Shown here piece after piece: positions 2 through 53,745 of a stretch of 64,000 bases of DNA. The notes under the pieces are model-generated. The model did no database searches. It worked only from the letters and a program-made list of their open reading frames with translations, and had not been told where the DNA came from. The stretch is taken from the NCBI GenBank assembly GCA_040753675.1, contig JBFMEB010000009.1, forward strand, positions 3,407-67,406. Direction: 5' to 3'. This DNA comes from Candidatus Omnitrophota bacterium (lineage in GTDB: Bacteria; Omnitrophota; Gorgyraeia; JAHJTE01). Position 1 is the stretch's first letter. Each line of letters starts with the position of its first letter. A program made the position numbers and the translations under genes.

Positions 2-870
2 GCATTTTCATTTGCCTCAAGTAGCAGGGCAGAGGAGATTGATGTTATTGTTAGAGTCCAGGATGATTTAAGAGATGATTTAGAGAGGATTCGTAATATT
101 CGCCTGGTAAATCGCGATGGCAATCTAATTTATTTAAGCCAATTTGCAAAAATAAATTATGAAAATCAATTTAACGAAGTTTATAGACAAGGTGGCAGAA
201 ATGCCATAAGCATTTTAATTGAACCTGATACTCGTCTGACTGATGAGAGAAGATTAAAAGCAGCAGTCAAAGAATTATGGGAGAAAGAAAAGTTAAATTA
301 CCGAGACCAAGATTTAAAATTTGGCGAGCTTGAACGAGAAGAAGATGAGGCAATGAAAAAGATTGGCTATAATTTTATTCTGGCAATAGTAGCCATTTGG
401 TTTATGACATTTTTAACTCTAAGAGCAAGTATTAGCCAGACATTTGTGGTGCTTTCAAGCATTATGTTCTCAACTTCTGGCGTTTTTGTTGCTTCTATTT
501 TGGTGGGTAGCCCATTTGAATTCTCTACTTTGGTGACAATTTTTGCTTTAGGTGGTTTAGTTGTCAACAATTCTTTGGTCTTACTTTATGAGATTAACCG
601 TTTAAGAGGCCAGGGATTAGAAAAAACTGCCTCAATATTAAATGCCAGCCAGTCAAGGATGAGGCCAATACTACTGACTTCGATAACCACATTGCTTGGA
701 TTCCTGCCTTTGGCAATAGGTATGAGCGGGAATATTCCTTTCTTTACTGCAATGGCTCAGGCCTTGACCTGGGGTTTAGGCATTGCTACTGCCTTAACCC
801 TCTTTATTACTCCTCTTCTTCAAGCAGTAGCTGATGATGTTATAGACTGGTTTACTCGGATTAGGAAAAG
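2..870 (+). other. Domain: RND (AcrB/HAE-type) efflux permease C-terminal half (periplasmic subdomain + TM7-12)
   Basis: The translated motif ...LLYEINRLRGQGLEKTASILNASQSRMRPILLTSITTLLGFLPLAIGMSGN... matches the conserved RND region (AcrB ...[21 protein letters not shown]...). Several TM helices flank it. Confidence 0.6.
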
Positions 871-3800: not shown

Positions 3801-6800
3801 TAAATGAACTGGCGATTAAATTAAATATCGAAATTCTCTGGCAGGCAATAATAGAGCTGGATAGAGAGAGATTTTTAGCAGTGCGGAAAATCCTTGAAAA
3901 TAAATTTGGTTTTGTAATTTTTCCTTTTTTTGGTGAGAGAATAGACAATAGCATGAAGGGGACCTGGGCTGACAGGGCACTAACCAGCGAGATAATAGAA
4001 CAGTTTCCTCCTGAAAGCGGCACACGTTTTCCTTTTACCAAAAAATTAAAATTGGATGATTATTTTGAGGCAAGTAGGATTGACGATATAGAAATTTCTA
4101 CTTCTGAATTAAAAGAAGATATCCGCAAGCATGTCCCTGAGGGATTAGGCGTATTTATATTTAGGCTAATTACTGACGAAAATAACAAAACAGTACTTGA
4201 AACTATGGTTATCGATAACGGAAGAGGTTATGACCTGGAAAAATATTATGCCATTGGCCAGTCTGAAGAAGCGCCAAGAGAAACAACAGCAGCAGGTTAC
4301 GATGATGCAGACCATAGATTTAAAGAGGTTGGTCGAGGACATTGTATAGTTGCCTGCCTTATGCCGGATTTTGAAGTTAGGTCTCAAGATAAAATGTTTA
4401 TCCAGGAAGGTCGGACCGATTCAGTGGGTTTTGGAGCCACCGAAGAAATTGTCGGTAAATTTATTACTGATTTGCCTGTTATTGCTGGAACCCAGAAGCT
4501 TTTCCGCACATGGTCAGACAAGCCTGTTGCTACTCAGACAGCAACAGCCATTGAAACAATAGATGAAACAAACAAACAAGAAGTTGTCAAGCCAACTTTA
4601 ACAGAGCTATTAAAAACAAATGATGAAACATCTCAGATTAGAAGGTTATTAAGTTTTATATACACAGATAAAGATATTTTAACGCCTTCACGCAGAGAAT
4701 TATTTATTATTTATCAGACTTATGTGGAGACATATCATCATTATCCCTCACTTGCTGTATTAGCTGAGATTGCTTTGTTGACCAGAGAACGGGCAAGGCA
4801 GATTATAAAGGATGATATTAACCCTATTTTGCGATTTTTCGGCTTACCATTGCTTGAGCTTGATAAAGATTGCCAAAAAAAGACACTCTCGCAAGCAGAT
4901 ATGTTTAAGATGCAGGGGCTTTGGTATGAGTTAACATCAGGCATCAAGGTACCTGGAATTGAACTGAAGAATCTTAATAGCGTGTCACTTAGTGAAGAAG
5001 AGGCATTTCACACGACTCGGGTTAGGGAGTTGCTTATGGATATTGCCAATGAATTAGCGAGGACTCGTAAACCATTCAAAGAATTTGAAGAGATAAAAGA
5101 GAGGCTTTGGGGCTGCGGAAGAATAAAAATTGCTATTTTGAGGCGGTTTTATTATCTTGGTAAGTTAGAAGTTCCTATAAGCAATGAAGAAATAGCAAAT
5201 ATTATTCCTGTCGAGTTTTTGAATAGACTCCCTGCCTTGCCTGCTCGTAGAGGCCCTCGAGATGTGAACTGGAGAAGCCGCTCTGGCAGAGTTAAAAGCT
5301 TTAATGAGCCGTTTGTCGACTTAATTAAAAAGGCTTGTATTTCCGATGCTGAGTTAGAATTTATTTTAAACGTCGTTATTATTATTAAAGATTTACAGCG
5401 CAAATATTCGCTACATTCAATTTTCCGCAGACACAAAGGCATATTAAGCCCTGTTTTGGATGTTTTGGAAAATAATCTGGATTCGGCTCGCCACATTGCT
5501 ATAAAGCAGTGGTTAAGGAGGAAAGAATTAAAAGGAAAACTCGCAGAGTTAATCGAGGCCTTGGGCATAACCGAAAGAGATAAGCATGAACATAAAAGAG
5601 GTTTAAAAGATGCTGAGATTATTTGGCCAGAATTTAAGTTTCATCCTCGTACTATAACTGAAGAACAGGCAATGAGCCTGCCGTTAAGTAAGGGTGCTCG
5701 CCAGTTACTTATTGAATCTATAATATTGCAGCATCTAAAAGGTGGAATATATATAAGGCGCTGGGAAGATTTTTCTCAGATACGGGGTTACAGGCCATCT
5801 TACCTTGAAGAGTTTAAGCACTGTTTGCTTAATCCTACCATGCCTATTTCACAACGGATAAGAACATCTTCTGTTGCAGCAGTAGTTATGCCAGGGGCTT
5901 TGAATATATTTAACTTAGATAATCCGGATATTTTGACTTTACTCGTTTCTCTAATATTCCTCATTCCTTTTGCATTAGCATTTTATGGCGTTAACGCTAA
6001 TCCAACAGAATTATTAGTTAATAGTGCACCTGACTCAATAGAGAGAAAACGCTTAGTTTACATATATAGGGAATTGTTTGATGATTTAGACAGAGAGCGG
6101 TTCATAATCCACCAGGCCTATCTTTACAAGCATGGTCAGTATCCTAAATATGACTTAATTGCTCAGTTGAGCGCAGCGCCGGGCTCTAAGCCGGCTACTA
6201 AAGAAGCAATCCGCCAAAATATCGCAGAGATTAACGCGATATTCAAATTTTTCAATTTATCCGGTTTAGGAGTATTAAAACGAGGAGTATGGATTCCTAC
6301 AGAAAGAATCAGCAAAGAAGATATAAAAGAGATGAGAGAAATCTGGGAGGCATATACAAGAGGTGTTGAATATGTAGAGTCTGAAATTATTCCAAAGAGA
6401 GATAGCCGAGCTATTTCATTAGAAGAGGCCAGAGAACTTCCTCACAGATTTGGCCGCAATCTTATGGTTAGAATAATAAGAGCCAGACAGCGAGGTAGAA
6501 AATTTGCAAATATTAAAGAGGCGCTGGCTAAATTAAAATTAAGAGGAAATGAAGTAGGGATGGCGAAAATTTTAGAAAAACTCTTCTCTTCTATTCTATT
6601 TTTATTAGTGGCAGGAACGGCTTTTGATAACACCTATTCATTATTTGCCATACCTATTATTCTTGGCTTGACTGTTAAGGTTGGGGATATCTCTAAAGAA
6701 GCTAATGAAGCGTCTTTAAAGGATGCTATTGAGCAGTTAAGAGGAAGAGATATTGTTATACTTCAGATGGAATATGAGTTATCAATGAGATTTTTGAAAG

Positions 6801-9800
6801 AATTTTGCGGTTATTTAATAAGAGATTTGAGATGTTCATTAAAGGATGCAGTATATAACACAGGAGAAGTAGCTAAGATTCTTATGGCCGGCGGCTTGGG
6901 GAGTTTTAAACCTGATTTAGTAAAAGGTTGGTACGAGGTCTTAGGAGAACATTGGAGTGGAGTTGAAGCAAGAAAACGCCTGCATGTTTTTGGCATATTA
7001 TATTCTTCGGCTATTAAAGGTCAAGGACCTATAAAGCCACGGGGCTTATCATCGGATTCCAATATTATTAATCTGGTAAGAGGAGCTTTGCAGAAGGTTA
7101 AAGTTTATAGAGGCATAGAGCTTAATATGAATGGCGTAGGTAAGGTTGACGTAGAAATCTATATGAATCCTTATTCAGAATTAAATGAATATTGGCTTTA
7201 TTGCCCGCATGTTTTTCATGAGGCATATTGTGGTGAACGAGATGATGATTTTAGGGCTGTGCAGAGCTTATTATATAGAAAAGTGGTGTTAAGATTTATT
7301 AAAGAGGAAATGAATGAAGGCCGTATTAGTAGAGTCCTATTATTTTCAACCAGCGAGGTAAATACAACATTAGCAATTCCAGCCGTGGTAGACGATGAAT
7401 TTAAGGATGATAAAGATTTTAGCAATATCCTGATACATCATTACAATCACACAATAGTTCCTGCAGGAATCCCTCGCTATAACTGGTATCTTTTTGACGC
7501 ATTAAATATAGCTGAACAGCTCAGAAAAACCATCAAAGATGGAAAGATAGATTTAATCAGTATTACCGGAGAAGTCTGTGATTTTATTACCGGCTGCTCC
7601 AAAGCCCACACCAGAAAGCTTCGAGAAGAGATTTTTGCAAAATTTGCCCAAAAGGTGCTGGAGGATGATTTATTCGGAAACAGTGAAGGCTCGGATATAG
7701 AACGCTGGCAAGGCGAAGCAATTGGGGAAATTATTAAGAAATATATGAGAGAATCAAGTGTTGACGATTATAGCAGTTTGTTTAAAGCGTTAGAAAGAGC
7801 AGAGTCTCTCAAGCTTAAATTTATGGATGAGATATTAGCTGCTAAAAGGCAACAAAAGAGGGTTTTTATTGATGAATTATTGCAAGGGACATTTGGCCAA
7901 ATAAACTTTACCACTGAAGATTTAGAGACAGATGCAGTTGAGCTTGAAGATATGCCGTTCTTTCCATTTGTTAGGAGAATGGTGCCTTATAAGTGCGCCG
8001 ATCTTATTGTAGATATCCTTTATAACCCTGATTTTAGAGAGAGGATTATAAAGAGTAGGGCAATAATCTTTATTGGCGGAAGGAAATTCGATGGGTTTGC
8101 TGATATACAAAAGAGAAGGATTAAGAAATTAATTGAACTTGATAGAAGAATGAAATATCACATTATATTTATTGAAAATCACAATGTATTCACTTCTTGG
8201 ATTATTCAGCAAGGCACAGATTTTGGCGGAATGCTTTCCTGGAAGGATAAAGAGGCAGGACCAACCAGCCCTACCAATTCAGAGCAGAATTTTTCTCCTA
8301 CAGTCGCCACTAGTGACGGCGTAATTGATGAGAGGGTCGAGCAGATAAAGAGAGATAAGCAAGGTAAAATAATTAGCGGCAATGGATATATTGTGGCCTA
8401 TGGAAATGAACGCTCGCCTACAGGCGAGATTATGCCGGATAGAGAATCTTTAGTAAGCGAGATTGAACAGGCCTGCTCAGATTATTTTGATAGAGACAAT
8501 TATAAGGAAGTGGCTTTCAATGCCGGAAAAACCGGAATGCTTGACGGCGATATTCGTAATCAAGCCAAAGGCCTACTTCGGCTCTGGGGACAGCAGTTAG
8601 CTAAAAAGATAGCTTATCCTGCAACAATACCTGTCTCAGATGAGCCAGATAGAAAACCTACTCAGGGAGAATTAGATAAAGTATATGAGATTTTTGGCGG
8701 CTTTGGAAGGATAGATATTGATGAGAATAATTTAATAATCAGTCCCTCCTTAAATGCCCCTGCAGAAGTAAAAAATGGCTTACTTTACGTTAATCCTAAT
8801 ACACTACGAGGGCCGCCAGAACAATTAAGAGTAATTTTTGAAGGTCACGAATTATTCCACTTATTATATCCGCAAAAATCAGACCAAGAGGCCCGCCAAT
8901 TCACCATTCAATATCTCCTCAAAACTAATTTACTATTAAGCCATATAGAGTTTCTCACTAACAATAATCTCAGTTTAATTCCCAAAGCCGATTGGTTGGC
9001 CTCATTAAAGAATGAGGCAGTGGTTTTGCTATCTGATTTAGAGTGGATAAAAAATAACATCAGACTCGCAGGCTCAAATACCGATGAATTAAAAGCTGCC
9101 CTTGGGCTTAAGACATTGTTTGATGGACGCTCAACTATAGTATTTTTATCTTCTGATGAGCGTTACATTATAAAGGTTTACAAATATGCGACAGCTAAAT
9201 ATGAGAGAGAGAAAGAATTTCTACAGGAGCTAAATCCAACATTAAGGCCGATGCTCTATTATTATGATGATAAGGCACAGGCCTTAGTTACGGATAATCT
9301 AAAAGCCCTCGGCTTTACAAGTCTTTTTGAGTTCATGCAGTCGCCAGATATATCTATAGAAGAATTGAGAGTTGTTATGCGTTTAGCAGCCGGAGCATTA
9401 GCCAGAATTAATATACCTCAAATGCCTGCTCATTCAGCGCCAATACTTGATATCTCTGATGAAATAAGAATTTTAAGAGACGCAGGCTTTAATGATTTGC
9501 CCGATACCAATTCTGTTAAATTGCCACAAGATGATTTCAAAGAACAAAAGGTTGTTGCTCATGGCGACTTCTCTCCTTGGAATATATTTGTAGACCCAAA
9601 GAGTGGTCAGATAGAAGCAGTCATTGATCCGGAGTCCGAGCGTTTTAATACTCACAGTAGAGAACTTGTTGCTGCGATTGAAGGATTGATAGATGCGCGC
9701 AAGAATAATCATTTGTTAGTATTACATATAGGAGAGCTTGTATCTGAATTTATAGACGAATATACAAGGATAGCCAATATTGATAAAGAGAAATTATATG

Positions 9801-12800
9801 CGCGGCTGCATTACATTTTAGCCAGCCAACTGTTAATTGATGCATATCAATTTTATTGGAAGTGGGGAATGAGAGAATGGGCACAATGGAGAATAGCCCT
9901 GGCTAAAAAATTATTAGTCATGAAAAGATTTTCTATACCCGGCTTAGAAAATATCTTGAATGTTAATTTAGGACAAGATGTTATTGTTTGGGCAGGAGGC
10001 GTGGATACTGATTATGGACCGGTTTCTGGAGTTAGCATAAACTCTAAGATAGGAGAGAAAATAACTTTGTATGTCCGCCTTAATATGCGCGATGTAGATT
10101 ATGAACCACTTATTGCAACAAACATTATTGCTCAGGTTTGGACTGATATTAACTCTGGAATCTGGCATAGTGAAGGACTCCTCGAGTTCTATAAATATGA
10201 AGACGGAAATTACTTATTTAAGGGAAGCTTGATTCCATTTGTTCCAGGAAAGTCTGAGTTTACTGTTAGATTCTCTACTGATGGAGCTACTTGGCATTAT
10301 GCAGAAATGCCTTACGGCAACGGCATAATTATGGCTCAAGATAGTTCTGATGATGCCTTAGATAGATTCCAGGTAAGACTTCAAGAGATTATCGATAGAG
10401 GAAGTATGCCGATAGTTTTTGTAGATATGGATTATACAATTACTGAATCTTTTGGCTCAGAATTAGTTGATAGAGTAAAAGATGCACTTAAAGAACTTTA
10501 TCTTAGGGGTGGAATCTTTGGCTTAAATACTGCAACAGCTATTGATGGGGTAAAGAGGCAAGTACTAGATAGCTTAGGTGGATTATTTAACTTCTCATTT
10601 ATGATTATTGAGATAGGTAGAGAAATTTATGCCTGGAACGAAACTGAGAAAAGATATATTAAATTACCGATTACAGCTACGACTAAAGGAAAAGCAATGA
10701 GAAAGTTAGCACATTATTTAGGCGTAAGTTTAGAAGATTTTATATTTATTGGAGATTTCCCAAGCATAGGAATAGATGATTCAGTCTTAAGGGAGAAATT
10801 AGGAATAGTTGTTGCCATAGGCAAAAGTAGATTGCCTGAGACTATCAAGACAAAGCATTCAGAAACCTTGTTGATTAAACCTCTTAAATTAACTCCTCCG
10901 TGGGTGGGGCCAGAGGCAACAGTTCAATATATAAATCGACTTATTTTAGTTTTAGAAAGAAATAAAATTAACCAAACTCGAGGCCCACCATCTCCTCCAT
11001 TATTTAATTACCCAGCTAAAGTAAGGCGAACTGAATCAAAGAGAGAATTTCAAGATGTAGTTACGCTTGTTTGCTTTGATGAAGCAAAGAAAGTATATTT
11101 TAGCGGGCAAAACAACTTAAGAGAAAAAATCGGCAGGGCTGAGTTTATTAGGTTAAAAAGAGCGCTCCTGAAAGCCATAAGAATAATTTCAAGAGAATAT
11201 CCTTATATTTTTAATGCTTTAGTTAATAGAAAGATGCGCCTGCGCTTATCTACTGAAATTGAACAAGCCAGTTACGTGACTGCACACGAGTTGGTTATCA
11301 ACATTGATTGTTTAAGGCCTGCTAAGGAAGAAGCACAAGATTGGGAACTTGCCCTAATCGGCATATTAGAACATGAATTTGCCCACTTAGAAAATCCTCA
11401 CCTTCACGAATCCCAAGTAAGACAGCATAGTATTTATTTTTATCAAGGTCACCTTGATATCTTACAGGCAACAATAAGCCAGTTTGAAAAGGGCTTTCTC
11501 ATTGACCCAGAGTGGCTTGCAATCCTTAAGAATATAAAAAGAATAATTGTTTTAGAGAGATTCTGGTCTGAGGTAGCAAAGACTGAATTAGTAAAAGAAT
11601 TTTTAGAGATAAAATTAGACAGATATAGAAGCAGCAAAGCTCGAGCCCAAGACCTAATCGCTAAGGCCATAAAGAGATTTTCAAGCATACTCGCAGATTC
11701 CGGAGTAAACGAACAGCTGGTAAAGAAATTTGAACATATTTTCTTTGAATATGACAGCGTAATTATCGTCTATAAACTGGGCAGCTCAACTTACAAAATC
11801 ATCTGCATAGCGAAGAGAGATATATTAGATGCATATAGTTCAGATTCAGTCAGCCAGAATATTTTCAATGCTGAAGTGCGCACAAGCATTTTTAGGGACA
11901 ACGGTAAGCTTGCCTTTGGCTATATTAGGAAACTCTTGATATATCAAAATGACCCGCAACTGTATCAGATTATATCCTTGCTTATTTCTAATAATACTCA
12001 CGATGTAAGACGAGCAATAACTATCATAAAAACAAAGCTTGCTAGGGGGGAGAGTCCAGAGACCTTAAAAGAACTTTTGTACGCTAGTCTCTATTATTGT
12101 CACAATCCACAATGGGGAGTGAGTCAAGACATTAGAGTTATGATGAACAAATTGCTTGAAGATATAATAACTGAACGACCACTTACATTTCCTCAGAGTG
12201 TGATAAATTTAAGCGTGTTTAAAGGCCAAACCCAGACGATTAGAATTAGTTTGCCGGTTAACTTCAATCCTTTAGTTAATAAAAAGATGAGTCAAAGATA
12301 TCAGGCGAGAATCAGGCTATCAATAAACGGCAAATTAAAGAAGCAGGCCATACCCATGGCACTTGATTTGGATAATTCTAACGAGGCAGAGATAGCTTTT
12401 GCCACTGAGGTAAAAGCGAAAAAGGGCTGGATTCATTACACTATCCAGATCTCGAAAGATGCTGGAAAAACCTGGGAATATGAATTAGTTCATCCTTATT
12501 CAAATGGCTTGATAAAAGTTATCGCTGATGAGCTGGGTGAAAGAGTCTTAAGTACTTATGCAGATACTTGGAATTTGCATCTTGATGAAAAATTGTCGCC
12601 ATTAAAAGATGAAACTGGCACTTATGTGTATGGGGCATTCGATGATTTAGCAAATCAGCTTGAGGTGATTAAAAATGAAGGATATTCACGTATCTACCTT
12701 TTAGGTGCCTTGGAATTGGGTTGGGCAGGTGAAGCCGGTCCTGATCCTTCTGTATTCAGCATCTGGGATGGGGTAACTATTCGTCGGGACTTAGGCGGCT

Positions 12801-15800: not shown

Positions 15801-18800
15801 TAATGCCTTCTGGCGGTGAAGTTGGTGAACCAGGGGGCTTGAGTAATTTAGAAGCTTTGGCAGCAGGCACACCTGTGATTGCCCATAATCAGGATGGCCT
15901 TAAAACTACAATTCACGATCCATATTTTGGCGATAGCGAGCCGATAAACGGTATAAAGTTTGAAGGCTTTAATGGTCCGGCATTGCTGGCGATACTTATT
16001 GAGGCAAAAAGAATTTATTTTGACGAGGTGCATAGCCGTACAGACAGACGAGGCAGGCCAATAAAGTATCGCACTATAAGTTTTAATGCCGCTAACACAG
16101 ATAGTCGCTGGATTAATCCCCTTAGAGAATATATTGGAATTTTTGAGAATATTATTTCAGGTAAAATTCCAGAGGATGTCCAGGCGATTGAGCTCTTGAG
16201 CGCACTTTCCAGTATACCCGAACAGGAAATCGCAGACGTAATAATAAAGAAAGGCTATAAGCCTTCCAAAGCAGCTGAGATTATTGTTTGGGCGTTATCT
16301 CATCCGATAAATATAGTGCGCAAAAAGGCAGCACAGATAATCTGGCATATGCACAGAGCTGGCGTACAGGATATGCGCAGACTCCTCGAACGAGTTGATA
16401 GATGGGCTAATGAATCGATTAAGCATTCAGCAGAAGTTCTCCTAAGAAGAATAGTTATGCTCGCTTTACTGGCTTTACCTATATTAGGCGCTGCTGGCGT
16501 TGATATAACTGGTATTTTTAGTATTGATTCTACTCCTTATTTGGTCCTTGTAGCTGCGGTATATAAGAGGGGCCATAAAAAGAGAGATAGCCGACATCAG
16601 GTTAGTAAGCACCGTGCAGTAGCTCAAATTCAACGAGATATACGAATCCTTAAACATAGCCAAGGCACCCGACAGGTTCATCGAAATTTAGTTAAAGATA
16701 TACTTAGCAGGCTTGAGTCAGGCAAGTTGGATTTCGATTTGATTAAAAAGTTAGATAATTTAATTTGGCTAAAACATTTGATAAGCGAGATTAGTTGCAA
16801 GAAGAAGTTCACAGAGGTATCTTTCGATTTGCATTTAGAATTACTTAACTTCTTGCTGGGCCTTGATGAGTTTAAGGAAAAACTTGCCAGAACAGTCGAA
16901 CACTTAATTACTGATAAGACAACTTCCCTTTTAGTTAGTCCTAATTTCAAAGCCGCAGCCGCGAGGGCGCTTGAGCAATTTAAAGCGCAAAAGGAAAATG
17001 GCAGTAGCGTTAACTTGCATCCTTTGGTTTTAATATTAGCTTTACTTATTAGTGTTGGTTTTGTCCTTCTAGCTCACAACTCACTACCGATAGCTCATAA
17101 CTTTTCTGCATTTATCCTCTTCGGTTTTATATTCTCTCCAAGCCACAATCCTCACTATAGGAGAGTCAAAGCAATAATCAGGAGAGATTCCATAGATTTT
17201 GAAGGAGAAATAACGATAGAAGAAAAATTTGGCCTGAGAATTAGCTTATCTTGCCTGAGAGATCTTTTACCTGAAAATGGAGAACTTAGAGTTTTGGTTA
17301 TTCATGAGAAAGATGGGCTTAATGTTTCTTCTGTTGGCTATCACAAACTCGCAGCTATATTATACGAACTTTCGAAGGTAAAAGAAAACATCGACCCGCT
17401 CACAACTTTTTTAATTAATGGTTTTAGCATATCTCCTGAGAAAAGTCTGTATCTACAAATTAGATTAGCTCAAATTTATCAGGAAAACTCATCTGTGGTT
17501 GCAGTTAAGTTGATATTCGCCCTCGATGAACAAAGTGAGGTTAGTATACTCAAAGGTGTAATAGATACAATTTCCACATTAGTTAATACAATTGTGCCGC
17601 CGGATTCTCAATCGCTGTTTCTTGAGAAGTTAAGTAAAAAATTACTTAGAAAATTATTCGATGGATTAACTATATTAGTCAGATCTCATCCTAATGAAGA
17701 TATAAGAGCCGAGGCCTTAATGTTGTTTACCGACATATATGTAATGCAGCAGTTAGTTAAAGCAATTGCAGAAGACAAAAGACACATTACAATATTGCCT
17801 TTTTCGTCAATAGAGTTGTTATCGCGGGCCTTAGGAGATGATAGTTATAGAGTTCGAGAAGTGGCGATAATAAGTTTAATTAAGTTAGGGATAAAGTATA
17901 ACCTGCCAGATGAATTAAGAATTCCGATTATTGAGTTATGCCTAAGGGAAGATATGTTAGATTTAGAAAGAGACAACTTAGGAATATTATTTAGCAACCT
18001 TGACTCTTTGGAAGCAGTTCTAATGTTAGAACGAGTTCTCGAGATAGAACTTTCATCGGAAAATCCAAGGCCAGAAAAGATATATTTCTACCTTAGGACG
18101 CTACAAGAATTGACTCCGGTAAGTTATTTTCTACTAAAAAGAATTCATAGCCAAAGACCTGAGCTTGAAATTAGCTTACCAGAAGATAATCCGGAAAAGG
18201 CTATAGGAGGAATAGTAGTTTTATTCGAAGATAGCGAGTCAGGAATTTTTTACAAACTCGTTACAGAACCGGAAAAACCACAGGATATTCAGAGTCTTGA
18301 GCTTAATTTAACTTCGGGGATAATTTTTAATGAGGCGCGCGGTTTAACTGATAGAGATAGAGTTAGGGCATTGGCTTGGTTAAATATTTTAGGCGCTAAT
18401 AAAGATACATTAAGAAAAATCCAGACAGAGGCAAAGATAAAAAGTGCAATCTGGTTTTTATCCGCAATTATAGTTTTGCTTGTGGCTTTCGGCTTTATCC
18501 ATCATCTAGTCCCGAATGTAGAAACTGCTTTAGCTATTCTTCGGGATCCCGAAGTTATTCTTAAGGGGGTAGCTTCATTCGGGATATCTTTCCTTCCATT
18601 TTTCTTTGGATTCATAAGATCGCCAAATGTTGTTCTGGAGAGAATACTACCTTCTTATCCCAAACGGGTTCTGGCAAAAATAACCAGAGAGGGTATTGCA
18701 TTTAAGGTTGAGGAGGGTAGAGAGCTAAGTCCAATAGATAAACGGAATTTAAGGGATAATTTATATTGTTTAATGAAGTGGTTAAAAGTTGGCAGTTACC

Positions 18801-24800: not shown

Positions 24801-27800
24801 GGCCGAAAATCTCTGATGCCTTGAATAATTTAAGGGATGAAACAGGCGTTGGTAATTTCCATATTGAGTTTATTGGAGAGGGGATTAGTGATTATGTAGC
24901 TTCAGAAATTCATTCCCTACATCAGGCAGGCTTAGATATTGGCCAGAGTAACGAAGATTTAGTGAATTGGTTTGTTAACCGCTTTGGAGAGGAAGCAAGA
25001 GAAAAAGCGCAGAGAATGAGGAGAGATCAGCTTTTTGCTATTCAATGCCGTACTGCTGTAGTTGATACGATGCATAATGCCATACTGGCAAGGCAAGTTC
25101 AACGTTATATTATAGGTTATTCAATTGATGTACAGCCTCTAGCTAAAATTTTAACTATTAAAACCTCCAAAGAAAAGCAGATTGAGATAGACATAGCTGA
25201 TGTGCCGCAAGCACTCAAACCGACTGATTTACAAATTCAAGATGCTGTTACCAGGCATTTTAAATATTTAATAACCAGATGGCAGGAATTAAATCCTAAA
25301 AGTCCTCTTACCATTAATATAAGAGCGCTTTTCTTCAGGCAGGCATATACTCACTATGCAGCAAAACTTAATCGTCTGCGCGGCTCGCCCCTCGATACCC
25401 TTTGGCCCTCTTTTTACGCTGCCTGCGTTATTTATCCTGCCATAAGACAAAAAACACTTGAGTTAATTGACCTTTTCAAGCAAATATCCCAATTATCTAA
25501 CGAAAAACAAATAGACGACGTTATTAGCGGATTCATCTCAACTCTTACTTTAAAACGTCCGCTTACAGAGAAAATAATCTACGAGCATATCCGTAGGGCA
25601 ATCAATCCCAACTGGCAAAAGAAACCCAAACAAAAATCATCTCTTAGGCTTCCTGCGCAAGGCGAACTTTTCGGCGTCTCTATTCTTATGATTGGATTAG
25701 GCCTTGCCTTAGTTTACAATCTAATACATTCAGGGACAAATCCAGAAGTATTTGCTGCTGGTTTTGTCTTTCTTGCAAAGTCTGACAATCTGAAATCTAA
25801 ATTGGTAGAAAAATTAGAGAGGTGGAAAGATACAAACCTAGGCGGGACAATTTTAAATAGGCCATTATTGTTGGTAGGCGCAGTTATGAAATTACTTGCT
25901 GCTAATTCTTCAGTATTTTTGGCAATAATTATTTATAACACGTATTTTACCAACGAACCCTTATCAGACTTTAAACAAATTTTCTATCCTTCGGTTATTA
26001 TGTTATCTTTATTGGTTATGGAATCATTTGAGCCAGTGCAACATTTAATTTTTCCAAAATTTGCCAAACTTTTCTATCCTAATCTCTTTTACTTTAGCAT
26101 TAGTAATTGGATGGCAAGAATTTTGGGAGCAGAAATTCAAAAGGTTCAGAGAAACACTAAGACTGTTGAGGATCTCGATGACTTAGCATTAATTGACGAA
26201 ATTAAATTAAGACATTCGGTTAGATTTTTAAATACACAAAGATTCTTACCAAAGCATATTGTCAGATCAAAATTATCTAAGATACGGGAACTGATCATTG
26301 AGGTAATTGGCATTCTTATCGGAAGTGCCATCTTAAGTTTAGTGGCATTTTCTCTTGTATGGGTGATGGAGTCTAGAGAATCATTGATAGATACTTTTGG
26401 ATACCTATATTTTACGCCACTAGTTTTATTATTCGTAATTATTATATTTAATCTGGGCAATTTCGGTATCCATTTTATCTTTTATCATTTCCATCTTCTT
26501 TATGATGAAGGAAAGATTTTTGTAGGTGCACAGACTATAAATACAAATATTGATCCACGCTTGGTTACTAGGACAGGAGAAGAGACGTCTGAGGATGAAT
26601 TAAGAGGATTATTAGTAAGGTGGCTTTATAGTGTAGACGTAAAGCGCTCTTTAATTACAAGCTTGGATCATCTGATCAGTATACTTCAGGCCAAGGTTGA
26701 AAAATTCGGTGGGAGAAAAATCGGCCGGTTGGTTTTGTATGGGCACGGGGCTACGGGGACTTTTACATTTAATAATGAATTTTATCTTTGCCTATCTAAT
26801 ATGGATGATTTGGATGTGGTAGCTAAACTAAGTAAGATAGGCGAATTCCTTGTAGAAGGGGCAACTGTCGTAATTAGCAGTTGTTATGTCGGAGAAGGCA
26901 AGCGCGGCGATAGATTTATGATTGCTTTTGCTAGAAGAGTCTTTGGCAGTAAAAGAGGCGCATTGATTACCTATTCAGATTCTAATATGTGGCAGGGTAA
27001 AAGATATGAGTATGAGCCTTCTTATTTAGCCGTACCTAAAATTCAAGAGGTGGTTATCCATCGCATCGGACTTCTAGGCTACAAGACAACTCCTTTGGAA
27101 CAAAGGAATTTAGCAATAAGTCCACAGCATGATAGGGTAGTGCAGGAGATTCGAGGCCGGACAATAAGAGACATGCTTACTAGAGGGTTGTCGGTGATCT
27201 TACTTATGTTTGGGGGTTTATCTTTCATTTCTTCAATCCTTTGGCCACAGGCAAGCCTTGCCCCGCCGCTTTTAGCTCATAGCTCGTCGCTCATAGCTCA
27301 TAGCCCGCTTTTATCTAGCATCCAGCATCCAGCATCTAGTATTCAGTATCTGGCATCCAGTTTTCCGTTCCTCATCCCTGCCTCGCCGGCAGATGGATTA
27401 TCGGCCATAAGCTGTGGGCTGATTGCTGGCTTTATAGGTTCGATTTTCCAAAATCAACAGGCACAGTTTGCTACTATAAAAAGAGGCGATGGTTCTATTG
27501 AAGAATGGGAAAGAGGAAAATTAGTTCGAGCACGGGTGCCTTATCGGGGAGAATATCTTGAAATTGTCCGCGTCTCTAAAAGGCATCCGGATTCTTATGA
27601 AATTTGGTTTGCCGGCAAGCGTATAGATGAGGATTTGCCTTATGGATTTGCTTTTAAAGAAAGATTTGATTTTAGGAGAGGGCGCATTTTGGAAGTTGGA
27701 GCTCTATTCCTAAAACCCGATTATCGTAATAATGGCGTAGGTTTTGTGTTGGTTAAATGGCTCGCTCAACATGCGGCAGAAAGGGGCATAACAACACTTA

Positions 27801-36800: not shown

Positions 36801-39800
36801 TGTTAAAGGCGAGGACAATCCTTCTTGATGAAGACTTGATGGCAATGTATGAGGATAGAGAGCTTTCAGAACATGCCAGACAAGAACTTCTTGTTTTATC
36901 AAAGTCAAAAGAGACTGTTAAGCAACTTATCAGCACAATGTTAGAGCGCCATAAAGGTGATAAGGAAAGATTAGTATCTGTTGGCATAGCTATTGCTAAC
37001 TCTCTTTCTTATAGCGCTGCACTTTATGCAAGAGTTACCCAAAGACTAATGGAGATATCTCGGGATAATGGTGAATCAGCAGGGTTAGCCATTGAGATCT
37101 TAAAAGGTATTGGAGTTTTAGAAAACAGGATTACCAGTTTTGAAGAGACAAGAGAATTGATAGACAAACAAGTAAGCAGTGTAGATCCAAGCAGTCTGAG
37201 ATTTCCGGCATTTGTAGCAGAAATTCTATGCCCGGTTCGAGGGTTGCAATGTGTATACGATAAACCAAGGAGGAATTATAGCGCAGTTATGGTTCCACAC
37301 TTTTTACGTGATACAAAGGGGCCGGTTATGGTTAGGATAGACTGTTATTTTGACTCAAAATTAGGTTATTATGTCTTCAGATGGCAGAACGTACAGGGCA
37401 AAAAGAAAGAATATGTTTATTATCGAATTGTTAGTGATTCGATTGGGTTTGAACTATTCTTGCCTCAGTTTCCTAATTTAAAAGGTAATAAACATGAGAT
37501 TGCTGAACAAATTTCTAGTCAGGACCTAAATTCTAAGCAGTTTGGCGACAGGGAATATATTTTGCCAGCTAAGGATAGAGGGCTACTTACGTTCAACATA
37601 AATATAGGCAAGCGCTCTGTGACAGCTTGTATGGCAACAGGCGACATGAAAAGGGGAGTCGTAAAATTAAGAGTAATTCTTATCGAAGAGTTAGTATGTT
37701 ATTTATTCTTCCCAGTTCATAAAAGATATTCAAGTCATCAAATCCGAGACTATGAAAAAGAAGGCTTCCCCAGCATTTCTCGCGTTAAGCAGAATCCTTC
37801 TGATTATTTGTTACCGGTTAGCTTTGAGGAAATTGGGAATGCCGATCTTGAGCACTGGAGAATGGACAAGCCAATAATCTTTAAGAAAATCAGAGAAAAA
37901 TATCAGCGCGGCAAGCTTGCTCAAACACTTGGCGCATTTTCGGGAATGATAAAACCAGTAGAGATGCAGATTAATGAATATTTTGAGAGATACGGGAAGG
38001 CATTTGAAGAACTGCAAATGAGTCAGCATAATTTAACAAGTCCGAATGAGGCATTTTCTGGAATTTACAGAGAATTGGCTTCTTTGGGTATAATCCAGCT
38101 ATATTTACATAGACTAATTAATGATTATGATGTGGAATTTGGTATTGCACTGCAGGAAGTCAACCAAAACTTAGCATTAGTTGGCAATAGCTTACGTCTA
38201 TTAAAGCATAAAATAGATGATAAGCGGCAAATCGTCCAAGACGCAGAGTATCAAGTTTATGCCTTTAAGAACCGGCTCGGAATTAAACCCAAGTTTAGAA
38301 GAAAGAGTGGAAAAAGAACTAGGCCCGATGAGAGAAAACAAAAACAGGATGCGTTAGCTGCAGCGCAATTCATTATTAGGCTTATCGAATTTATTAAATT
38401 AGGCAGAATATTTAAACTTGGTAAAATAGTCACTGGTTTTGAAGAGCTGATTGCTCAAAGTGTAAGAAATGGTATAAAAACAGAAGAGGATTCAAATAGA
38501 TTAAAGACATTAACTACAACATTGCTTTGCTGGCTTTCGCCTTTAATCATTGGCTACTATACAAGAAGCATACCAATTATGGTTGGATTATTGGAAAAGA
38601 TTTCGCAGATAGAAGAAAGAGATTTTAGTGAGGTTATTAGGAGAGGGCAGGACATACTTTTAAACTTAGAGCAGATTAGGCCTTATTGTCGTCAGGTAGA
38701 ACTTTTAAAGCAAGCTTTAGATGAGTCATTAAAATGGTTCAAAGAGGTAGATAGATTAATTTCTGAAGCTTTAAAAAATTTACAAAATAAAATTAGAGGC
38801 AGATTAAGACAGCTTAATAGGAATAGCAAAGATTTGATTAAAAAAGCGCAAGACATATTCGGGATGCCCTTAAATACATTTGCCGAGAAAGAGAATTTTC
38901 TGAATTTAGCTTCAGATTGGTTAGAAGATTTTGAAATAGAAATTACTAAAAATAGATTAGGAGGCCTAACCAGAAAAAAAGGAGCGGCATCTTCCTTCCT
39001 TGATTCTCCATTTTTGCCGTTACTTTTTCTTGGTTTAGGCTTAGCAGGTTTTGGCGCATTTTATCTTTACAATTTACTATTCGGTTCCCAGGCCACTCTT
39101 GCTCCACCGGAATTAATATCACAAGCCATAACTCATCTGTCACATGTTCTAGTATCGAGTATCGAGCATCTAGTATCTATCATCTCCAATTTCCTTTCCA
39201 CCAACTACCAACTACCAACTACAAACTACTTCTTTTTGCCTTTTATCTTCGGCTCCATCTTCAGTCTCTACGATGGACTTAAAGATGATGAGCAGCCAGA
39301 TTTATTTAAAACCATAGAGGAATTATTACCATTTGCCAGGAATAGTTTTCATCCAGAAATCATAAATAAATTCCAGGAACTTTTTAATAAGGCAATAAGA
39401 AAAGCAAGGACTAATGCTGATGTAGCCTTGGCACTATCTGTAATATTAGAGGATTTATTACAACATCCGGGCAGTGGTTGTCTTAAAAACTTCTCTATAA
39501 GAACCTTAAGAATTTTGCATTCTTACTGGCCTGATATTGTCAGCGAGGCAAAGATGGCGGAGGTCTCTATTTCTAAGGCTTCATTTGAAGAAAGGCGTAG
39601 TAACCTTGAAAGAGAGTTTATAACATTTGTTAATCCCGCTAATGGGGAGGTTTTAGAGTTTAAGCATCCAAAATCAGGACAGGTTCAGAGATTTTGGCAA
39701 GGAAAGCGTGACCGTTTATTTTTCTATAAGATTCTAACAAGTCTATTATTAACAAACGGACAACTTATGGTTGAGGGCATAGAGTCTATAGGTGATGGCA

Positions 39801-42800: not shown

Positions 42801-45800
42801 TATTACAAACAGAAGAAGGCCAAAGCTACATCAGTGCACAGTTGAGAGGCCGCGGTCGCCAACTGGCGGGCCTTTCCAACCTCCGTGCCCGTGCAGCGGA
42901 TTACAGCAATTTATTAAAAGGCATCTCGGCATTGCTATTAAGTTCTATCTTAGCTGGGGCAGTGTATGTTCTTGCAAAGCCGATTATGCAGGAATATGCG
43001 AATATGGGCGAAGCAGCTGGCTGGGTGCCGATACGTATGCTATTTACCTTTGCCTTAGTTGCAACAACAGTTTTATTTATCTATCAGTTAGCTAAAGAAA
43101 AGTCAATAAAGACAGTATTTAGACCTAAACTTAAACACAGTGAATTTGGATGGATTGTTTTAGTCGGCGTTTTTGGTTCATTCCTGGCGGCAACTTGTAT
43201 TTACAGCGCGGTTAATCTTAGCACGCCGTTTCTGGCAGCGCTTTTTTATTCACCATTTGTTCCAATAATAGTTGCTTTACTCAAGCATAAACTAAATATT
43301 CCGAAGACAGTATTCTTTGGCGTGCTGTTTGGCGCATCCGGGATTGCGCTTTCAATTATTGCAGGTAAGGGTAGTGCTGAAATAGTTACGTTTAGCGTTT
43401 TAACTCTATTAGGGATTGCTGTAGCATTTATAGGCACTTTCTTTTTCGCAACAAGCTTACTTCTTATTCAACGTAAATTCTCATCTAATCAAGGTATTGC
43501 CTCTACACAGATTTTGTTTTTTAGCTCAATAACTTCTTTGGTTTTGTTTGGTATAGTTTTATTAGTTTCTAAACTTTCCCCTATTTTTGAATGGAAGATT
43601 CTTGGTTTAGGTTTAATGCGCGCTACATTTTTATTATGTAGTATTTATGGAATCCGCCTTTTGCCAGCTTCTTTGGCTGGCGTGTTAGCAGGAACAATTC
43701 CGATATCAGTATTGTTATTTGAGCAGGCAAGTTTAAGCGCCAGCGCTTGGTTTTTAGAGGCGCTTGCCTTGTCAATGGTTCTGTTCAGCGTCTGGCTTCT
43801 TTCGCCGAGAAATGAGAATACGCAATTATTTGAGAGAATTCAGAAGTTAATTAACAAAGGTAGGCAAAATGAAACTTCAGCCTACGAGCTAATGGATGAG
43901 ATTGAAGCTCTGGGTGAGGCTTCTGACGTTGTCCGGGCATTAAAAACCATAAAACCAGCTGATGAATATGAAGAGACAATAATTTTAAATTCAATATTAA
44001 AATTAGGGAGCTTAGAAGATTTAGAAGAGTTGGGAGAGGAAAAAATAAAGGCTTTGATTGAAGAAGGTAAATTTGGCTTTACAGTAACAAACGAAAATAG
44101 CAAAGAAAAGATTTGGATTCATCTCAGAGCTCTGGAGCATATTTTGGCAAGCCATAGTGAAAACTATTTAAAATTAATGAAGTTGTGGAAAAACTTTGTC
44201 TTTTCTAACCAGGTTACTTTAGATCAGATTATTATTTTAATTAGAGAAACTTGTCAAGAAGGTTATCCTATCTATTACAGAGGAGCGAACCACTGGTTTA
44301 CATATGTTTGGTATGTAGCAGACTATTTAGCTAAAAAAACTGGAATACGCCGTATGGAAGCGAGAGTTAGAAAGCGCAAGAAAAATACATCATTTTCAAG
44401 CTTGGCAACTGCCTTACCAACTGCTGGTAAAAACTTCTTGATATTAATTAGAGGAGAGAAATGTTCTAACTTTGAAAATGATCTATTTCCAGCGAGAGTA
44501 AAGAACATATTTGATTTGCGACGGATTAATTTATCCTGGTCGAATATGAGACTGATACTTAAGCGCATAGGTAAGAAACGAACTGGCGGTAGATGGTTTT
44601 GGTCAGGAGCTGCGCCAGAATTAATTGAAAAGGCAATATATTTAACAGCCAGATTTGGTAGGTATGCTGGCAATTTTACAACACCTAAAGGCAGAGATTG
44701 CGCCGTTTGTAGAAACTACCGCTTACCTCTTAAATTGCGATTTAAACTAAGAATTTTTGCTTTAGAGATACTGGTTGCAGAAAATGGATATGTGCACGAT
44801 GCCTTTCCAGTTGGTATCAGACATCTTATCAGAGATACGATTAAATCAATCCCAGAGAAGCTGGGTGGTAGCACTTTAAAAAATAGATTGTTAAAGGTAA
44901 TTTTATTTTCAGCTATTTTGAGTGTGGGGTTATATTACAGTGGAATTTTTTCATTATATTGGTCGTTAAAAGATACAAATCAGTTTTTCTTTAATATAAT
45001 TACAGCGACTATATTTACTGCGCTCTCAGATTTGCTATCAGTGTATCTTTCTAAAAAAAGACAGCATTATCCAATTCTAAGACTACCTTTTGAGCTGGCT
45101 ATAGGTGCTGCCGCGGGTCTTATCTTTACAATCTTTCAGCATTATATTATTGAAGCCTATTTTCCTAAAGACCAATCTTCTTACTTCATTTATTTTGTAC
45201 GGACCTCACTACTATTTTCAATTTCAGTATTCAATATGCTTATATATGCATTTTACAAAAAATTTGAAAAACGGTTATTTAAGATTTTTGACAATGCAAA
45301 TTTAGGAAAAATTATATTTGATGTTCTTGTTTTTAAAGCACTTATTGGTTTATTCAAATATCCTTTCGCTGCAATAGTACTCGATCAGAAAGACGTATTG
45401 GTTTTCTTTTATGGCTTGGATATGCTTAAGGTTGGGGTTATGGTTTGGGCGATAAATAAAGGTGTACCATTTTGGAATTTGTATGACAAGTGGGGCATTA
45501 ACAAAATAATAGCTTCATTAAAGAGACTATTTACTGGGAGAAAAGATGCAAAAGAGAAAGAATTGTCGATTGATATAACTAAAGTTAAATTAGAAGGACA
45601 GGAAGACGTTATTAACAATTTAGCTGAAGCTTTAAGAAGACTATATGAAACAATGCCATTTAGAGCTGCTTATCTTGTTGGTTCAAGGGCAAAAGGCAGA
45701 CAATCAAATTCTTCTGATGTTGACCTAAGGATAGTAATTAATGATAGGTCTGACGAAGCCAGTTTATTAGAAGCAATAAATAAAATATGGTTGGAAATTG

Positions 45801-51614: not shown

Positions 51615-52925
51615 ATGTATAGTAACTCAATGATTAACAACGAGAAAAGAAAGTTCCAGCGCATAAGCGAGACGCTGCCGGTGCGGTTTAGATTCTCGGA
51701 TAGGCAGGGCTCTGTCTGGTATGATGCAAAGACCCAAAATATCTCTGAGGGTGGTTTGTTTGTTACCAATAATTTGAGCTTAGATGAGATTGGCGATGTT
51801 GTGCATGTTGATTTGAATATTGATAATAGCTTATTGCGAATTATATGTCAGGTTGCTTGGGTAAAGAGAGAAAATGATATAGCAGCTGGCTTTGGTTTAA
51901 AAATAATCCAAATAGAGCAAAAACATAGGCAAATTTTCCTTACCTATATATATAGCAGAGTCAAGCCAAAGAGAATGCCCTGCAAGATAAAATTCTTAAG
52001 GCAGCCCATATCTAAACTGCCAGATAAAGAGCGCAGGTGTTTCCAAATCTTAGATTATATTCGTAGATTTGGTCCGGTTTCAAAGGCAGATATCTGTAAA
52101 GAAATAGATTTAAATGCTGTTAGCGTTGGCAAGTTTATTGAAGACTTTTTAAGATTAGGAATAGTATTTGACTGCGGCCTTGATTTATCCAGCGGCGGCC
52201 GCAGAGCCCAGCTATTTAGAATTAATAAAGATTTTGGGTTTATTTTAGGCATAGATGTTGATAGAGATAGCGGAAATCTCTATGCTTTAGTTGCTAATAT
52301 GGATTTAGAAATCATTATGGAAGAAACAAAACCCTTTGGGAAACAGGATGATATAAAAAATATTTTAATTAATTTCATCAATGCAATTAAATTTAAGATA
52401 GCTAATAATGGCAATAATATCTTAGGAATTGGAATCGGCCTTGGTGAATCGCACACTGACCATAGATTAGCAGATTATTTATCAGAAGCTGTTGGCCTAC
52501 CTGTTATTATTGAGGAGGGTTTTCACTTAGAGTCTTTTGCGCAGAGTTGGATTACCAGGGCATTGTCGAATAAGAATATACTTTACATACATTCCAAACA
52601 TCACTTAAGTTTAATCTTGCAAGGTGATATCTATAAACCTGAGAGAGAAATTGAGAATAAAGTTGAATTAACTCCAATAGATTTGCAGGATAAGGTATTG
52701 GCTTTATTAGAGTTGCTAGGTCCAGATATAGTTTATATTTCAAAGAAAGCTGAGAAAGAGTCCCCTCTTTTGAAACAGGCGCTTACGGAACGCTTGAAGA
52801 GAACTGATATTAGCGAAACTCAGGGTATTAAAGTGCTTAGCTCAGACGTTGACGAGAAAAATGCTATAGCTCTCGGGGCTATAAGCCTGGTGATGAAGGA
52901 GATATTTGTGGCAATCTGCGGATAG
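51615..52925 (+). CDS. PilZ-domain / ROK (NagC/XylR)-family regulator-like fusion protein
   Basis: N-terminus RKFQRISETLPV ... TQNISEGGLFV carries the PilZ RxxxR + DxSxxG motifs. A wHTH (ILDYIRRFGPVSKADICKEIDLNAVSVGKFIEDFLRLGIV) and a ROK-like sugar-kinase fold (ILGIDVD...) follow. The ROK Cys zinc motif is not evident. GGGAGA RBS lies 11 nt upstream of the ATG. Confidence 0.6.
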   Translation: MYSNSMINNEKRKFQRISETLPVRFRFSDRQGSVWYDAKTQNISEGGLFVTNNLSLDEIGDVVHVDLNIDNSLLRIICQVAWVKRENDIAAGFGLKIIQIEQKHRQIFLTYIYSRVKPKRMPCKIKFLRQPISKLPDKERRCFQILDYIRRFGPVSKADICKEIDLNAVSVGKFIEDFLRLGIVFDCGLDLSSGGRRAQLFRINKDFGFILGIDVDRDSGNLYALVANMDLEIIMEETKPFGKQDDIKNILINFINAIKFKIANNGNNILGIGIGLGESHTDHRLADYLSEAVGLPVIIEEGFHLESFAQSWITRALSNKNILYIHSKHHLSLILQGDIYKPEREIENKVELTPIDLQDKVLALLELLGPDIVYISKKAEKESPLLKQALTERLKRTDISETQGIKVLSSDVDEKNAIALGAISLVMKEIFVAICG

Positions 52926-52975
52926 GGCACAGATGATCGCTGATAATTGAACAGATGATCACAGATTGATACATA
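52926..52975. repeat. Word-repeat array, inverted orientation of the same word (cacagatgatc)
   Basis: cacagatgatcgctga...aacagatgatcacagattgat. Together with 51551-51612 it brackets the PilZ-ROK gene as inverted arrays. Confidence 0.55.
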
Positions 52976-52994
52976 GAACGAATTCTTGTATAAT
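52966..52994 (+). promoter_or_regulatory. Sigma70-like promoter for the PilZ gene pair
   Basis: -35 TTGATA (52966-71), 17-nt spacer, TG-extended -10 TGTATAAT (52987-94). About 40 nt upstream of the RBS/ATG at 53034. Confidence 0.4.
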
Positions 52995-53033
52995 GATATT
53001 TAAGATTTAACCTACGATAGCGGGGGATGGATC

Positions 53034-53414
53034 ATGGAAGATAAAAGAAGACATAGCCGTTGGCAGTTGGCAAGTAATCTTTTAGTAAGAGAATCTGGCA
53101 CAGATAGCGAAGGATTCCAGGCAAAAACGAACGATATTAGTATTGGGGGATTATGTTTTCTTTCTCCCAGGATGATTGTCCATCAGACAGAATTAGATTT
53201 TGTTATTGATTTTCCAGATGAGAAAAATTCCATCTTTGCCAAAGGCAAAGTGGTTTGGGAGAAAGAGAAGATCTTGGACGACCAACAACGGGTTATTATG
53301 ACAGGGGTTAGTTTTGATATCCTTCGCGATGCTGATAAGGAAAGAATTTTTAATTATGCCTATAAATTTTGCCGAGAGGATTTGGCAAAAAAATGGTGGC
53401 AGGGGGTGAAATAA
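53034..53414 (+). CDS. PilZ-domain protein (c-di-GMP receptor-like)
   Basis: KRRHSRWQLA and TNDISIGGLCF motifs. GGGGGA RBS. A good sigma70-like promoter lies upstream. Confidence 0.65.
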   Translation: MEDKRRHSRWQLASNLLVRESGTDSEGFQAKTNDISIGGLCFLSPRMIVHQTELDFVIDFPDEKNSIFAKGKVVWEKEKILDDQQRVIMTGVSFDILRDADKERIFNYAYKFCREDLAKKWWQGVK

Positions 53415-53415
53415 A

Positions 53416-53745
53416 ATGCAAGACGAGCGGCGCTTATTTGAGCGGTTGTCAACAAAGTTACCTGCAGTAGTCAGGGCACAGACTGATGGTTCGGTATTCG
53501 AGGCACAAATCCAGGATTTGGCAGCTAAAGGGCTTGGTATAACCAGCAGAGACAGGATTCCTCAAGAAGGCCGGGTGAATTTGAGAATAGAAATTCCTGG
53601 CCAGAAAAATTACCTCAATCTTGTCGGCCAGATTGTCTGGTCAAGAGAGAATTTTCCTGACGGCTGGCGAGCAGGAATTTGGCTAAGGGAACAGTCAACT
53701 GATTTGGTTAGTTTTTCGGTGCTTTTAGATAAGGCTAACCGCTAA
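53416..53745 (+). CDS. PilZ-domain protein
   Basis: ERRLFERLS and IQDLAAKGLGI motifs. The start sits 1 nt after the preceding stop, suggesting translational coupling. Confidence 0.6.
   Translation: MQDERRLFERLSTKLPAVVRAQTDGSVFEAQIQDLAAKGLGITSRDRIPQEGRVNLRIEIPGQKNYLNLVGQIVWSRENFPDGWRAGIWLREQSTDLVSFSVLLDKANR

Follow-up and report, generated by a model that had tools for sequence, protein, structure and literature searches.

Here, we describe what is probably a genuine in-frame gene fusion, in which an RND permease module has been joined to a giant multi-enzyme membrane protein of the Omnitrophota type. Both parts lie in one stop-free frame of the window (the whole 64,000-nucleotide stretch of DNA that was analysed), as an earlier note on this DNA had read from its letters. 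Profile searches bear that reading out, with a match to ACR_tran (E 1.5e-44) for the RND part and to PF01408 (E 9e-14) for the Gfo/Idh/MocA oxidoreductase that follows it. As far as the sequence comparisons go, the junction appears to be known from a single sequence, and no homolog seems to share it. The frame and its RND part are laid out below; residue numbers count from the first codon of the frame inside the window.

2 to 51550, + strand: giant open reading frame (ORF), 17,182 codons inside the window, with an open 5' end and a TAA stop at 51548-51550.
26 to 826, + strand: C-terminal part of an RND permease module, residues 9-275, equivalent to ACR_tran positions 754-1018 of 1021.
377 to 832, + strand: helices TM8-TM12 (residues 126-144, 149-172, 177-198, 223-241 and 255-277), from hydropathy and AF2 helices.

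Frame 2 of the window (nucleotides 2 to 51547) has no stop across its 17,182 codons, and because the remaining two frames meet a stop about every 10-11 codons, it is the real coding frame. Stop-codon reassignment was considered and does not apply, since the standard code (table 11) already leaves the frame free of stops. The ORF continues off the 5' end of the window, and the giant protein is at least 17,182 residues long. At a Pfam E-value of 0.001 or below, about 20 domain families are found along the chain, including phosphorylase-like, APH, starch-synthase GT5 and GT1, HEAT, glpX-type FBPase, GNAT, guanylate kinase, amino-acid kinase and nucleotidyltransferase domains, with PF08323 and PF00534 among the entries matched. 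At the same threshold, no peptidase domain is found within the window, and no SecA or C39 family in its 17,182 giant residues. Additionally, about 50 hydrophobic segments are spread along the chain, some 45 of them beyond the RND part. With at least 10,000 codons, many TM helices and a mosaic of metabolic Pfam domains, the protein has the makeup of an Omnitrophota-type giant.

The window holds the last third of the RND pump, since the ORF leaves its 5' end at ACR_tran position 754. The match of residues 9-275 to this Pfam entry (PF00873) scores 152.5 bits against a cut-off of 28; the top NCBIfam model is RND_permease_2, and the top PDB sequence match is TriC (6vej, E 2.8e-24). In a complete RND permease there are twelve TM helices, and TM1 and TM7 are each followed by a large periplasmic loop. 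What the window contains of the pump is the C-terminal end of periplasmic loop 2 and the five helices TM8-TM12. The earlier note had described this part as the periplasmic subdomain and TM7-12, which is borne out for the end of the loop and for TM8-TM12; TM7 is not in the window and, as the model coordinates and knowledge of AcrB indicate, lies upstream of it. The AF2 model of the RND part has a pLDDT of 86-97 over residues 20-290, its Foldseek matches in the PDB (E ≤ 0.001) are RND pumps only, and TM8-12 superpose on solved pumps with an rmsd of 1.5-2.0 Å over 150-170 residues.

In RND pumps, the proton-relay residues are an Asp pair in TM4, Lys940 in TM10, and Arg971 and Thr978 in TM11 (AcrB numbering). 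In an alignment with 60 standalone RND proteins, TM10 of the window protein bears 'VVNNS' and TM11 bears 'RMRPILLTSITT'. The TM11 motif RxRPILLTSITT, the most conserved of the clade, is retained (it reads RMRPILLTS here), and both the Arg971 and the Thr978 equivalents are present inside it. Asn occupies the position of Lys940, as it does throughout the nearest clade, which reads N-D or N-N at this site.

Between the RND and Gfo/Idh/MocA domains lie about 90 residues without a stop (residues 278-367), and the permease does not run straight into the oxidoreductase, contrary to what had been proposed. The intervening segments and the oxidoreductase itself are the following.

833 to 895, + strand: basic cytoplasmic tail, residues 278-298, ADDVIDWFTRIRKRNKDKTIT.
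896 to 964, + strand: weakly hydrophobic, proline-rich stretch, residues 299-321, Kyte-Doolittle value about 1.0.
965 to 1036, + strand: extra strong hydrophobic helix, here called 'TM13', residues 322-345, Kyte-Doolittle value 2.4.
Residues 346-367: basic linker between 'TM13' and the oxidoreductase.
1103 to 2101, + strand: Gfo/Idh/MocA-type NAD(P) oxidoreductase, residues 368-700, with GFGDWS and EKP motifs.

The tail is where the fusion point lies, because all of the standalone homologs end at the equivalent of query residues 290-298 (nucleotides ~870-895, from the alignment of 60 RND proteins). Placing the RND end at nucleotide 870, as was done from the letters alone, therefore came near the mark. 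Standalone RND proteins end 10-25 residues past a DD(I/V) motif behind TM12, and the chain in the window does not share this habit of ending soon after TM12 but runs on. The proline-rich stretch that follows the tail is modelled by AF2 as coil with a pLDDT below 50, residues 296-321 are predicted to be disordered, and three start candidates lie in frame in the stretch (ATG 911, ATG 926 and GTG 929). AF2 then places a helix at residues 322-352, with a pLDDT of 66-86. 'TM13' is probably a signal-anchor kept from the downstream module.

The oxidoreductase is identified by a match to the profile of its N-terminal Rossmann domain, PF01408 GFO_IDH_MocA, at residues 375-502 (52.6 bits against a cut-off of 24) and by the GxGxxx and EKP motifs, present as 'IIGFGDWS' and 'VLVEKP', which can be read straight from the translation. 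Its homology spans residues 368-700, with 31-32% identity over about 330 aa to the proteins P0121 and P0124, and no NCBIfam equivalog cut-off is reached by the module. N-terminal signal peptides are found in many of its standalone relatives (P0124, P0157, P0165, P0197 and P0228). If 'TM13' is a single extra TM helix, the oxidoreductase would be periplasmic, which fits with these signal peptides and is favoured by the low-confidence AF2 coil at residues 296-321. If residues 299-345 form a hairpin instead, the oxidoreductase would be cytoplasmic, and this is favoured by two observations. The charge around 'TM13' is -2 in the 15 residues before it and +3 in the 15 after, and in P0121 no TM helix separates the oxidoreductase from the kinase module right next to it.

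The most likely origin of this arrangement is that the stop codon of an RND gene was lost, so that translation would have continued into the next gene. The joining site would be the cytoplasmic C-terminal tail of the RND module, the N-terminal signal-anchor of the downstream gene would persist as the 13th helix (residues 322-345), and the first module of that gene, the Gfo/Idh/MocA oxidoreductase, would come after it. Some 750 N-terminal residues upstream of the window would complete the pump. The RND module may still be a proton-driven exporter that trimerises, thereby bringing three giant chains together, and the sugar-metabolism, kinase and transferase modules downstream would hang from it. 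Since the giant embeds a complete EamA transporter internally (see below), the RND module may just as possibly be internal to the chain as N-terminal.

Two further units in the same frame bear on whether whole membrane or exported proteins can become part of such a chain.

42917 to 43801, + strand: complete 10-TM EamA (DMT) transporter, residues 14306-14600, with two Pfam EamA matches (E 5.9e-11) and ten hydrophobic segments.
50108 to 50818, + strand: twin-arginine-like signal, LysM and YkuD L,D-transpeptidase, residues 16703-16939, MGRRDFLVGG...VLAA.

The EamA unit sits in the middle of the ORF with other modules on either side, and because it is flanked on both sides, its embedding is not explicable by a single frameshift. 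The second unit consists of the internal twin-arginine-like signal 'MGRRDFLVGGLGFLVGLALTPLDVLAA', then LysM, then YkuD, and looks like a formerly separate exported protein that was joined in frame at the C-terminus. The relative P0121 has two comparable YkuD units. In-frame fusion of whole membrane or exported proteins is part of how the giant chain is built, and the reality of the RND fusion gains support from the fact that these two units are also in frame.

Several explanations compete with a real fusion that behaves as such. One is that two adjacent, co-oriented genes are linked by nothing more than a 1-nt mistake of sequencing or assembly, or by a frameshift allele that one strain carries, so that an ordinary RND permease would be followed by a giant gene that starts at ATG 911 or 926 with an N-terminal signal-anchor. 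We consider this distinctly unlikely, although the place where the standalone homologs end speaks for it. The tail also contains runs of four and three A at 866-873; a 1-nt indel there would end the RND gene at the frame-1 TAA at 874, the first of three (874, 880 and 892), and a restart would be possible at ATG 911. The strong TM helix after ATGs 911 and 926 resembles that of N-terminally anchored relatives such as P0124, and the in-frame coding score drops over residues 283-318. Additionally, the fusion is seen in no relative: no protein matching residues 276-1200 was found among 5.8 billion protein clusters in a word-indexed search, and RND homology is absent from the best 150 representatives in a full HMMER search of 1.84 billion representatives, which did yield relatives of individual modules. 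Protein-pattern scans of genome, metagenome and viral contigs turned up just unrelated loci of the Gfo family, and exact look-ups of three proteins encoded downstream had no match. Against such an error stands the quality of the rest of the frame. The ORF contains 993 homopolymer runs of at least 4 nt, including 69 of at least 6 nt and one A9, and because none of them breaks the 51.5 kb frame, indel errors must be rare in the assembly. The frame-1 TAAs weigh little, since off-frame stops come every ~10 codons or so. No Shine-Dalgarno-like motif is found upstream of ATG 911, ATG 926 or GTG 929 (GGAG or GGGGG precedes several genes downstream of the giant ORF), and the corresponding M304 and M309 have no basic n-region of the kind found in signal peptides, the basic residues there belonging to the RND tail. 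It is rather unlikely that the long ORF is real but that internal initiation or proteolysis frees the RND pump and the downstream modules from each other, leaving the pump an ordinary trimer. Complete in-frame units that bring a Met and a signal sequence of their own, such as the MGRRDFL... LysM-YkuD unit, would be compatible with this, and the disordered residues 296-321 could be a cleavage site. Cleavage by a C39 or S8 peptidase was raised as a possibility for giant proteins by West-Roberts et al. (10.1101/2023.11.21.568195), but the peptidase domains are absent from the window at the threshold given above, and the lack of Shine-Dalgarno-like motifs at the internal ATGs near the junction counts against initiation there.

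We are also rather doubtful of a real fusion in which the RND module would be a decaying, non-transporting relic that serves solely as a multi-helix anchor or insertion leader. The module keeps 36 of the 47 strongly conserved columns (≥80%), with the standalone homologs keeping 29-47 (median 44); the 11 columns that are lost include three prolines and two glycines. TM10 has NN against the clade consensus ND, and the 12 kb that follow the giant ORF contain no MFP or OMF partner gene. On its sequence, the module thus seems divergent and near the low end of its family, yet inside the family range. Moreover, nothing is lost from the motif that the clade conserves best, NN in TM10 is also found in several standalone members, and the confident AF2 model superposes on solved pumps. 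Partner genes of standalone relatives usually lie upstream of the permease (loci L004 and L005), which in this case is outside the window. Nor is an RND anchor needed, since the chain has ~45 hydrophobic segments besides those of the RND part, and a 10-TM EamA unit. The suggestion of the earlier note that the RND part might act instead as the membrane anchor of the giant is weak for this reason, and the retained clade motifs and the model fit better with a working, or recently working, transporter than with a relic. Very improbable, at the other extreme, is that the RND trimer is a working exporter heading a membrane-tethered assembly line of three giant chains, in which sugar-nucleotide, glycosyltransferase, kinase and acetyltransferase modules would make a glycan or glycolipid, the pump would export the product to the envelope, and LysM-YkuD would tie the chain to peptidoglycan. 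If true, this would be a new way of coupling synthesis and export in one polypeptide.

Other candidate explanations for the junction were tried and rejected. A chimeric assembly join was rejected because the RND part does not differ from the remainder of the ORF in GC, GC3 or synonymous codon use. We dismissed programmed frameshifting on the A-rich tract, as no canonical slippery heptamer was seen by eye and the RNA structure at the junction is not unusual (z 0.21). The frame-1 TAA trio at 874-892 was considered as the remnant of an old stop and rejected, since 2.5% of 21-nt windows contain three off-frame stops. Promoter- and terminator-like sites near the junction are no commoner than in shuffled sequence.

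The rest of the window offers several observations on the surroundings of the giant gene. Every substantial gene in the window (1-64000) reads along the + strand, nearly all 2 kb windows have a positive GC skew, and cumulative skew climbs steadily, a pattern to be expected of a single replication arm whose genes lie on the leading strand. No tRNA genes are found in the window. Directly downstream of the giant ORF are three consecutive genes for PilZ-domain proteins (51615-53745) of 436, 126 and 109 aa, the first with a long C-terminal extension, and the trio may point to regulation by c-di-GMP around the giant gene. A gene for a '23S rRNA-intervening sequence protein' (PF05635) at 56471-56830 stands between GH94 and sugar ABC transporter genes; in the Omnitrophota MAG GCA_018818105.1, PF05635 genes are interleaved with RND genes (locus L007, 13284-13640 and 18439-18795). 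The 3' end of an MFS_2 sugar-transporter gene (60665-62191) contains 18-nt and 33-nt tandem repeats (62087-62188), and the tail that they encode is rich in Arg and Glu (RRGERRVEEERRREERRVEEE...). Tandem repeats of a heptanucleotide, in 4-5 copies, occur at 27273-27360, 39200-39229, 54188-54224 and 62212-62300; those inside the giant ORF give the peptide repeats SSIQHPA and PTTNYQL, and the further ones are within the GH94 gene and in intergenic DNA. They could be phase-variation switches, because adding or removing a single 7-nt unit would change the reading frame.

If the fusion is real, Omnitrophota giants absorb whole polytopic transporters (RND and EamA) besides soluble enzyme domains. It would also suggest that they grow by stop-codon read-through, with the signal-anchor of the next gene kept as a membrane-crossing helix. 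This gives a concrete and testable mechanism both for the growth of giant genes and for the weaving of the chain through the membrane, and it raises a question of oligomeric state, with an obligate trimer that would sit at one end of a chain of ~18,000 residues. What is known of RND pumps is unchanged by the fusion, the support for which is a single unreplicated sequence.

Among known systems, the standalone ACR_tran / RND_permease_2 permeases are the closest to the RND module, with P0001-P0010 as the best matches and TriC (PDB 6vej) as a solved relative. They have the same fold and TM8-TM12 helix order as the window module, at 30-34% identity over 267 aligned residues, and have in common with it the RxRPILLTSITT motif in TM11 and, throughout the clade, the TM10 Asn at the position of AcrB Lys940. 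They differ in being 1000-1265 aa long and in ending 10-25 residues after TM12, whereas the window chain has ~16,890 residues more. Their loci typically have an MFP gene directly upstream, the equivalent position here being outside the window. P0001, P0005 and the Omnitrophota protein P0110 lie in ordinary efflux loci, with no giant gene beside them, and ordinary Omnitrophota RND genes are likewise standalone and in efflux clusters.

The earlier note had called a 12-TM pump in such a chain topologically odd, but full RND permeases with C-terminal fusions are known from public databases. They include RND-OEP proteins of 1440-1493 aa with a TolC-like OEP domain, such as P0329 (Maribacter dokdonensis, 1466 aa), P0283 and P0285, and RND-ABC ATPase proteins of ~1564-1588 aa, such as P0341 (1564 aa). 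We found these with a chimeric query (RND plus five modules), which returned only long RND proteins and missed P0121. There are many clusters of such natural fusions at 1440-1590 aa, and those of the RND-ABC ATPase type have extra TM helices. In the RND-OEP layout, a short basic tail comes after TM12, then the signal peptide of the OEP as a 13th helix and then the partner domain. Residues 255-345 of the window protein have the same order up to the extra helix, and the window arrangement is thus not odd in its topology. The partners in RND-OEP and RND-ABC fusions are efflux components that add ~400-550 residues; in the window, the partner is a mosaic of metabolic enzymes ~30 times longer. The window fusion, moreover, is known from one sequence. 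As its partner is neither an OEP nor an ABC protein, the window fusion works like the RND-OEP type but stands outside that group.

On the other side of the junction, the closest multi-module relatives are the Candidatus Omnitrophota proteins P0121 (MDD5566152.1, 3019 aa, partial), P0122 and P0123 (7967 aa), and the best of these relatives reach 42-52% identity per module. P0121 and the window giant have six modules in common, at 28-52% identity and in a completely different order, without RND; the regions shared are giant residues 368-700, 1210-1507, 6659-6989, 10424-10768 and 16767-16991, and in P0121 the oxidoreductase comes after an amino-acid-kinase module. Because the closest relatives order their modules differently and do without RND, nothing indicates that the fusion has been under selection. 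'SSSPL' and 'SSSPV' linkers stand between the modules of P0121 and P0123, and none was noticed in reading the translation of the window giant. The window protein otherwise resembles the Omnitrophota giants described so far (West-Roberts et al. 2023; 10.64898/2026.06.07.730766; Seymour et al. 2023, PMC10066038) in having more than 10,000 codons and TM helices spread along the chain. They have in common a Pfam mosaic that includes starch-synthase GT5, GT1, kinase, GNAT and HEAT domains, and both are unique in sequence, with modules shuffled among relatives. In line with the 2026 preprint, in which 80% of sequence clusters are singletons (10.64898/2026.06.07.730766), the giants are mosaics of shuffled modules. 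A divergent SecA-DEAD domain is reported for 'most' giants (West-Roberts et al., 10.1101/2023.11.21.568195), whereas neither SecA-DEAD nor C39 was detected in the part of the giant inside the window. RND, AcrB and efflux go unmentioned for giants in 10.1101/2023.11.21.568195, 10.64898/2026.06.07.730766, PMC10066038 and PMC11573180, the second of which names a 'transport / membrane architecture' module without specification, and no paper in the literature searched unites Omnitrophota, RND and giant proteins. The fusion is best seen as joining two known things, C-terminal fusions on RND permeases and the giant mosaic proteins of Omnitrophota.
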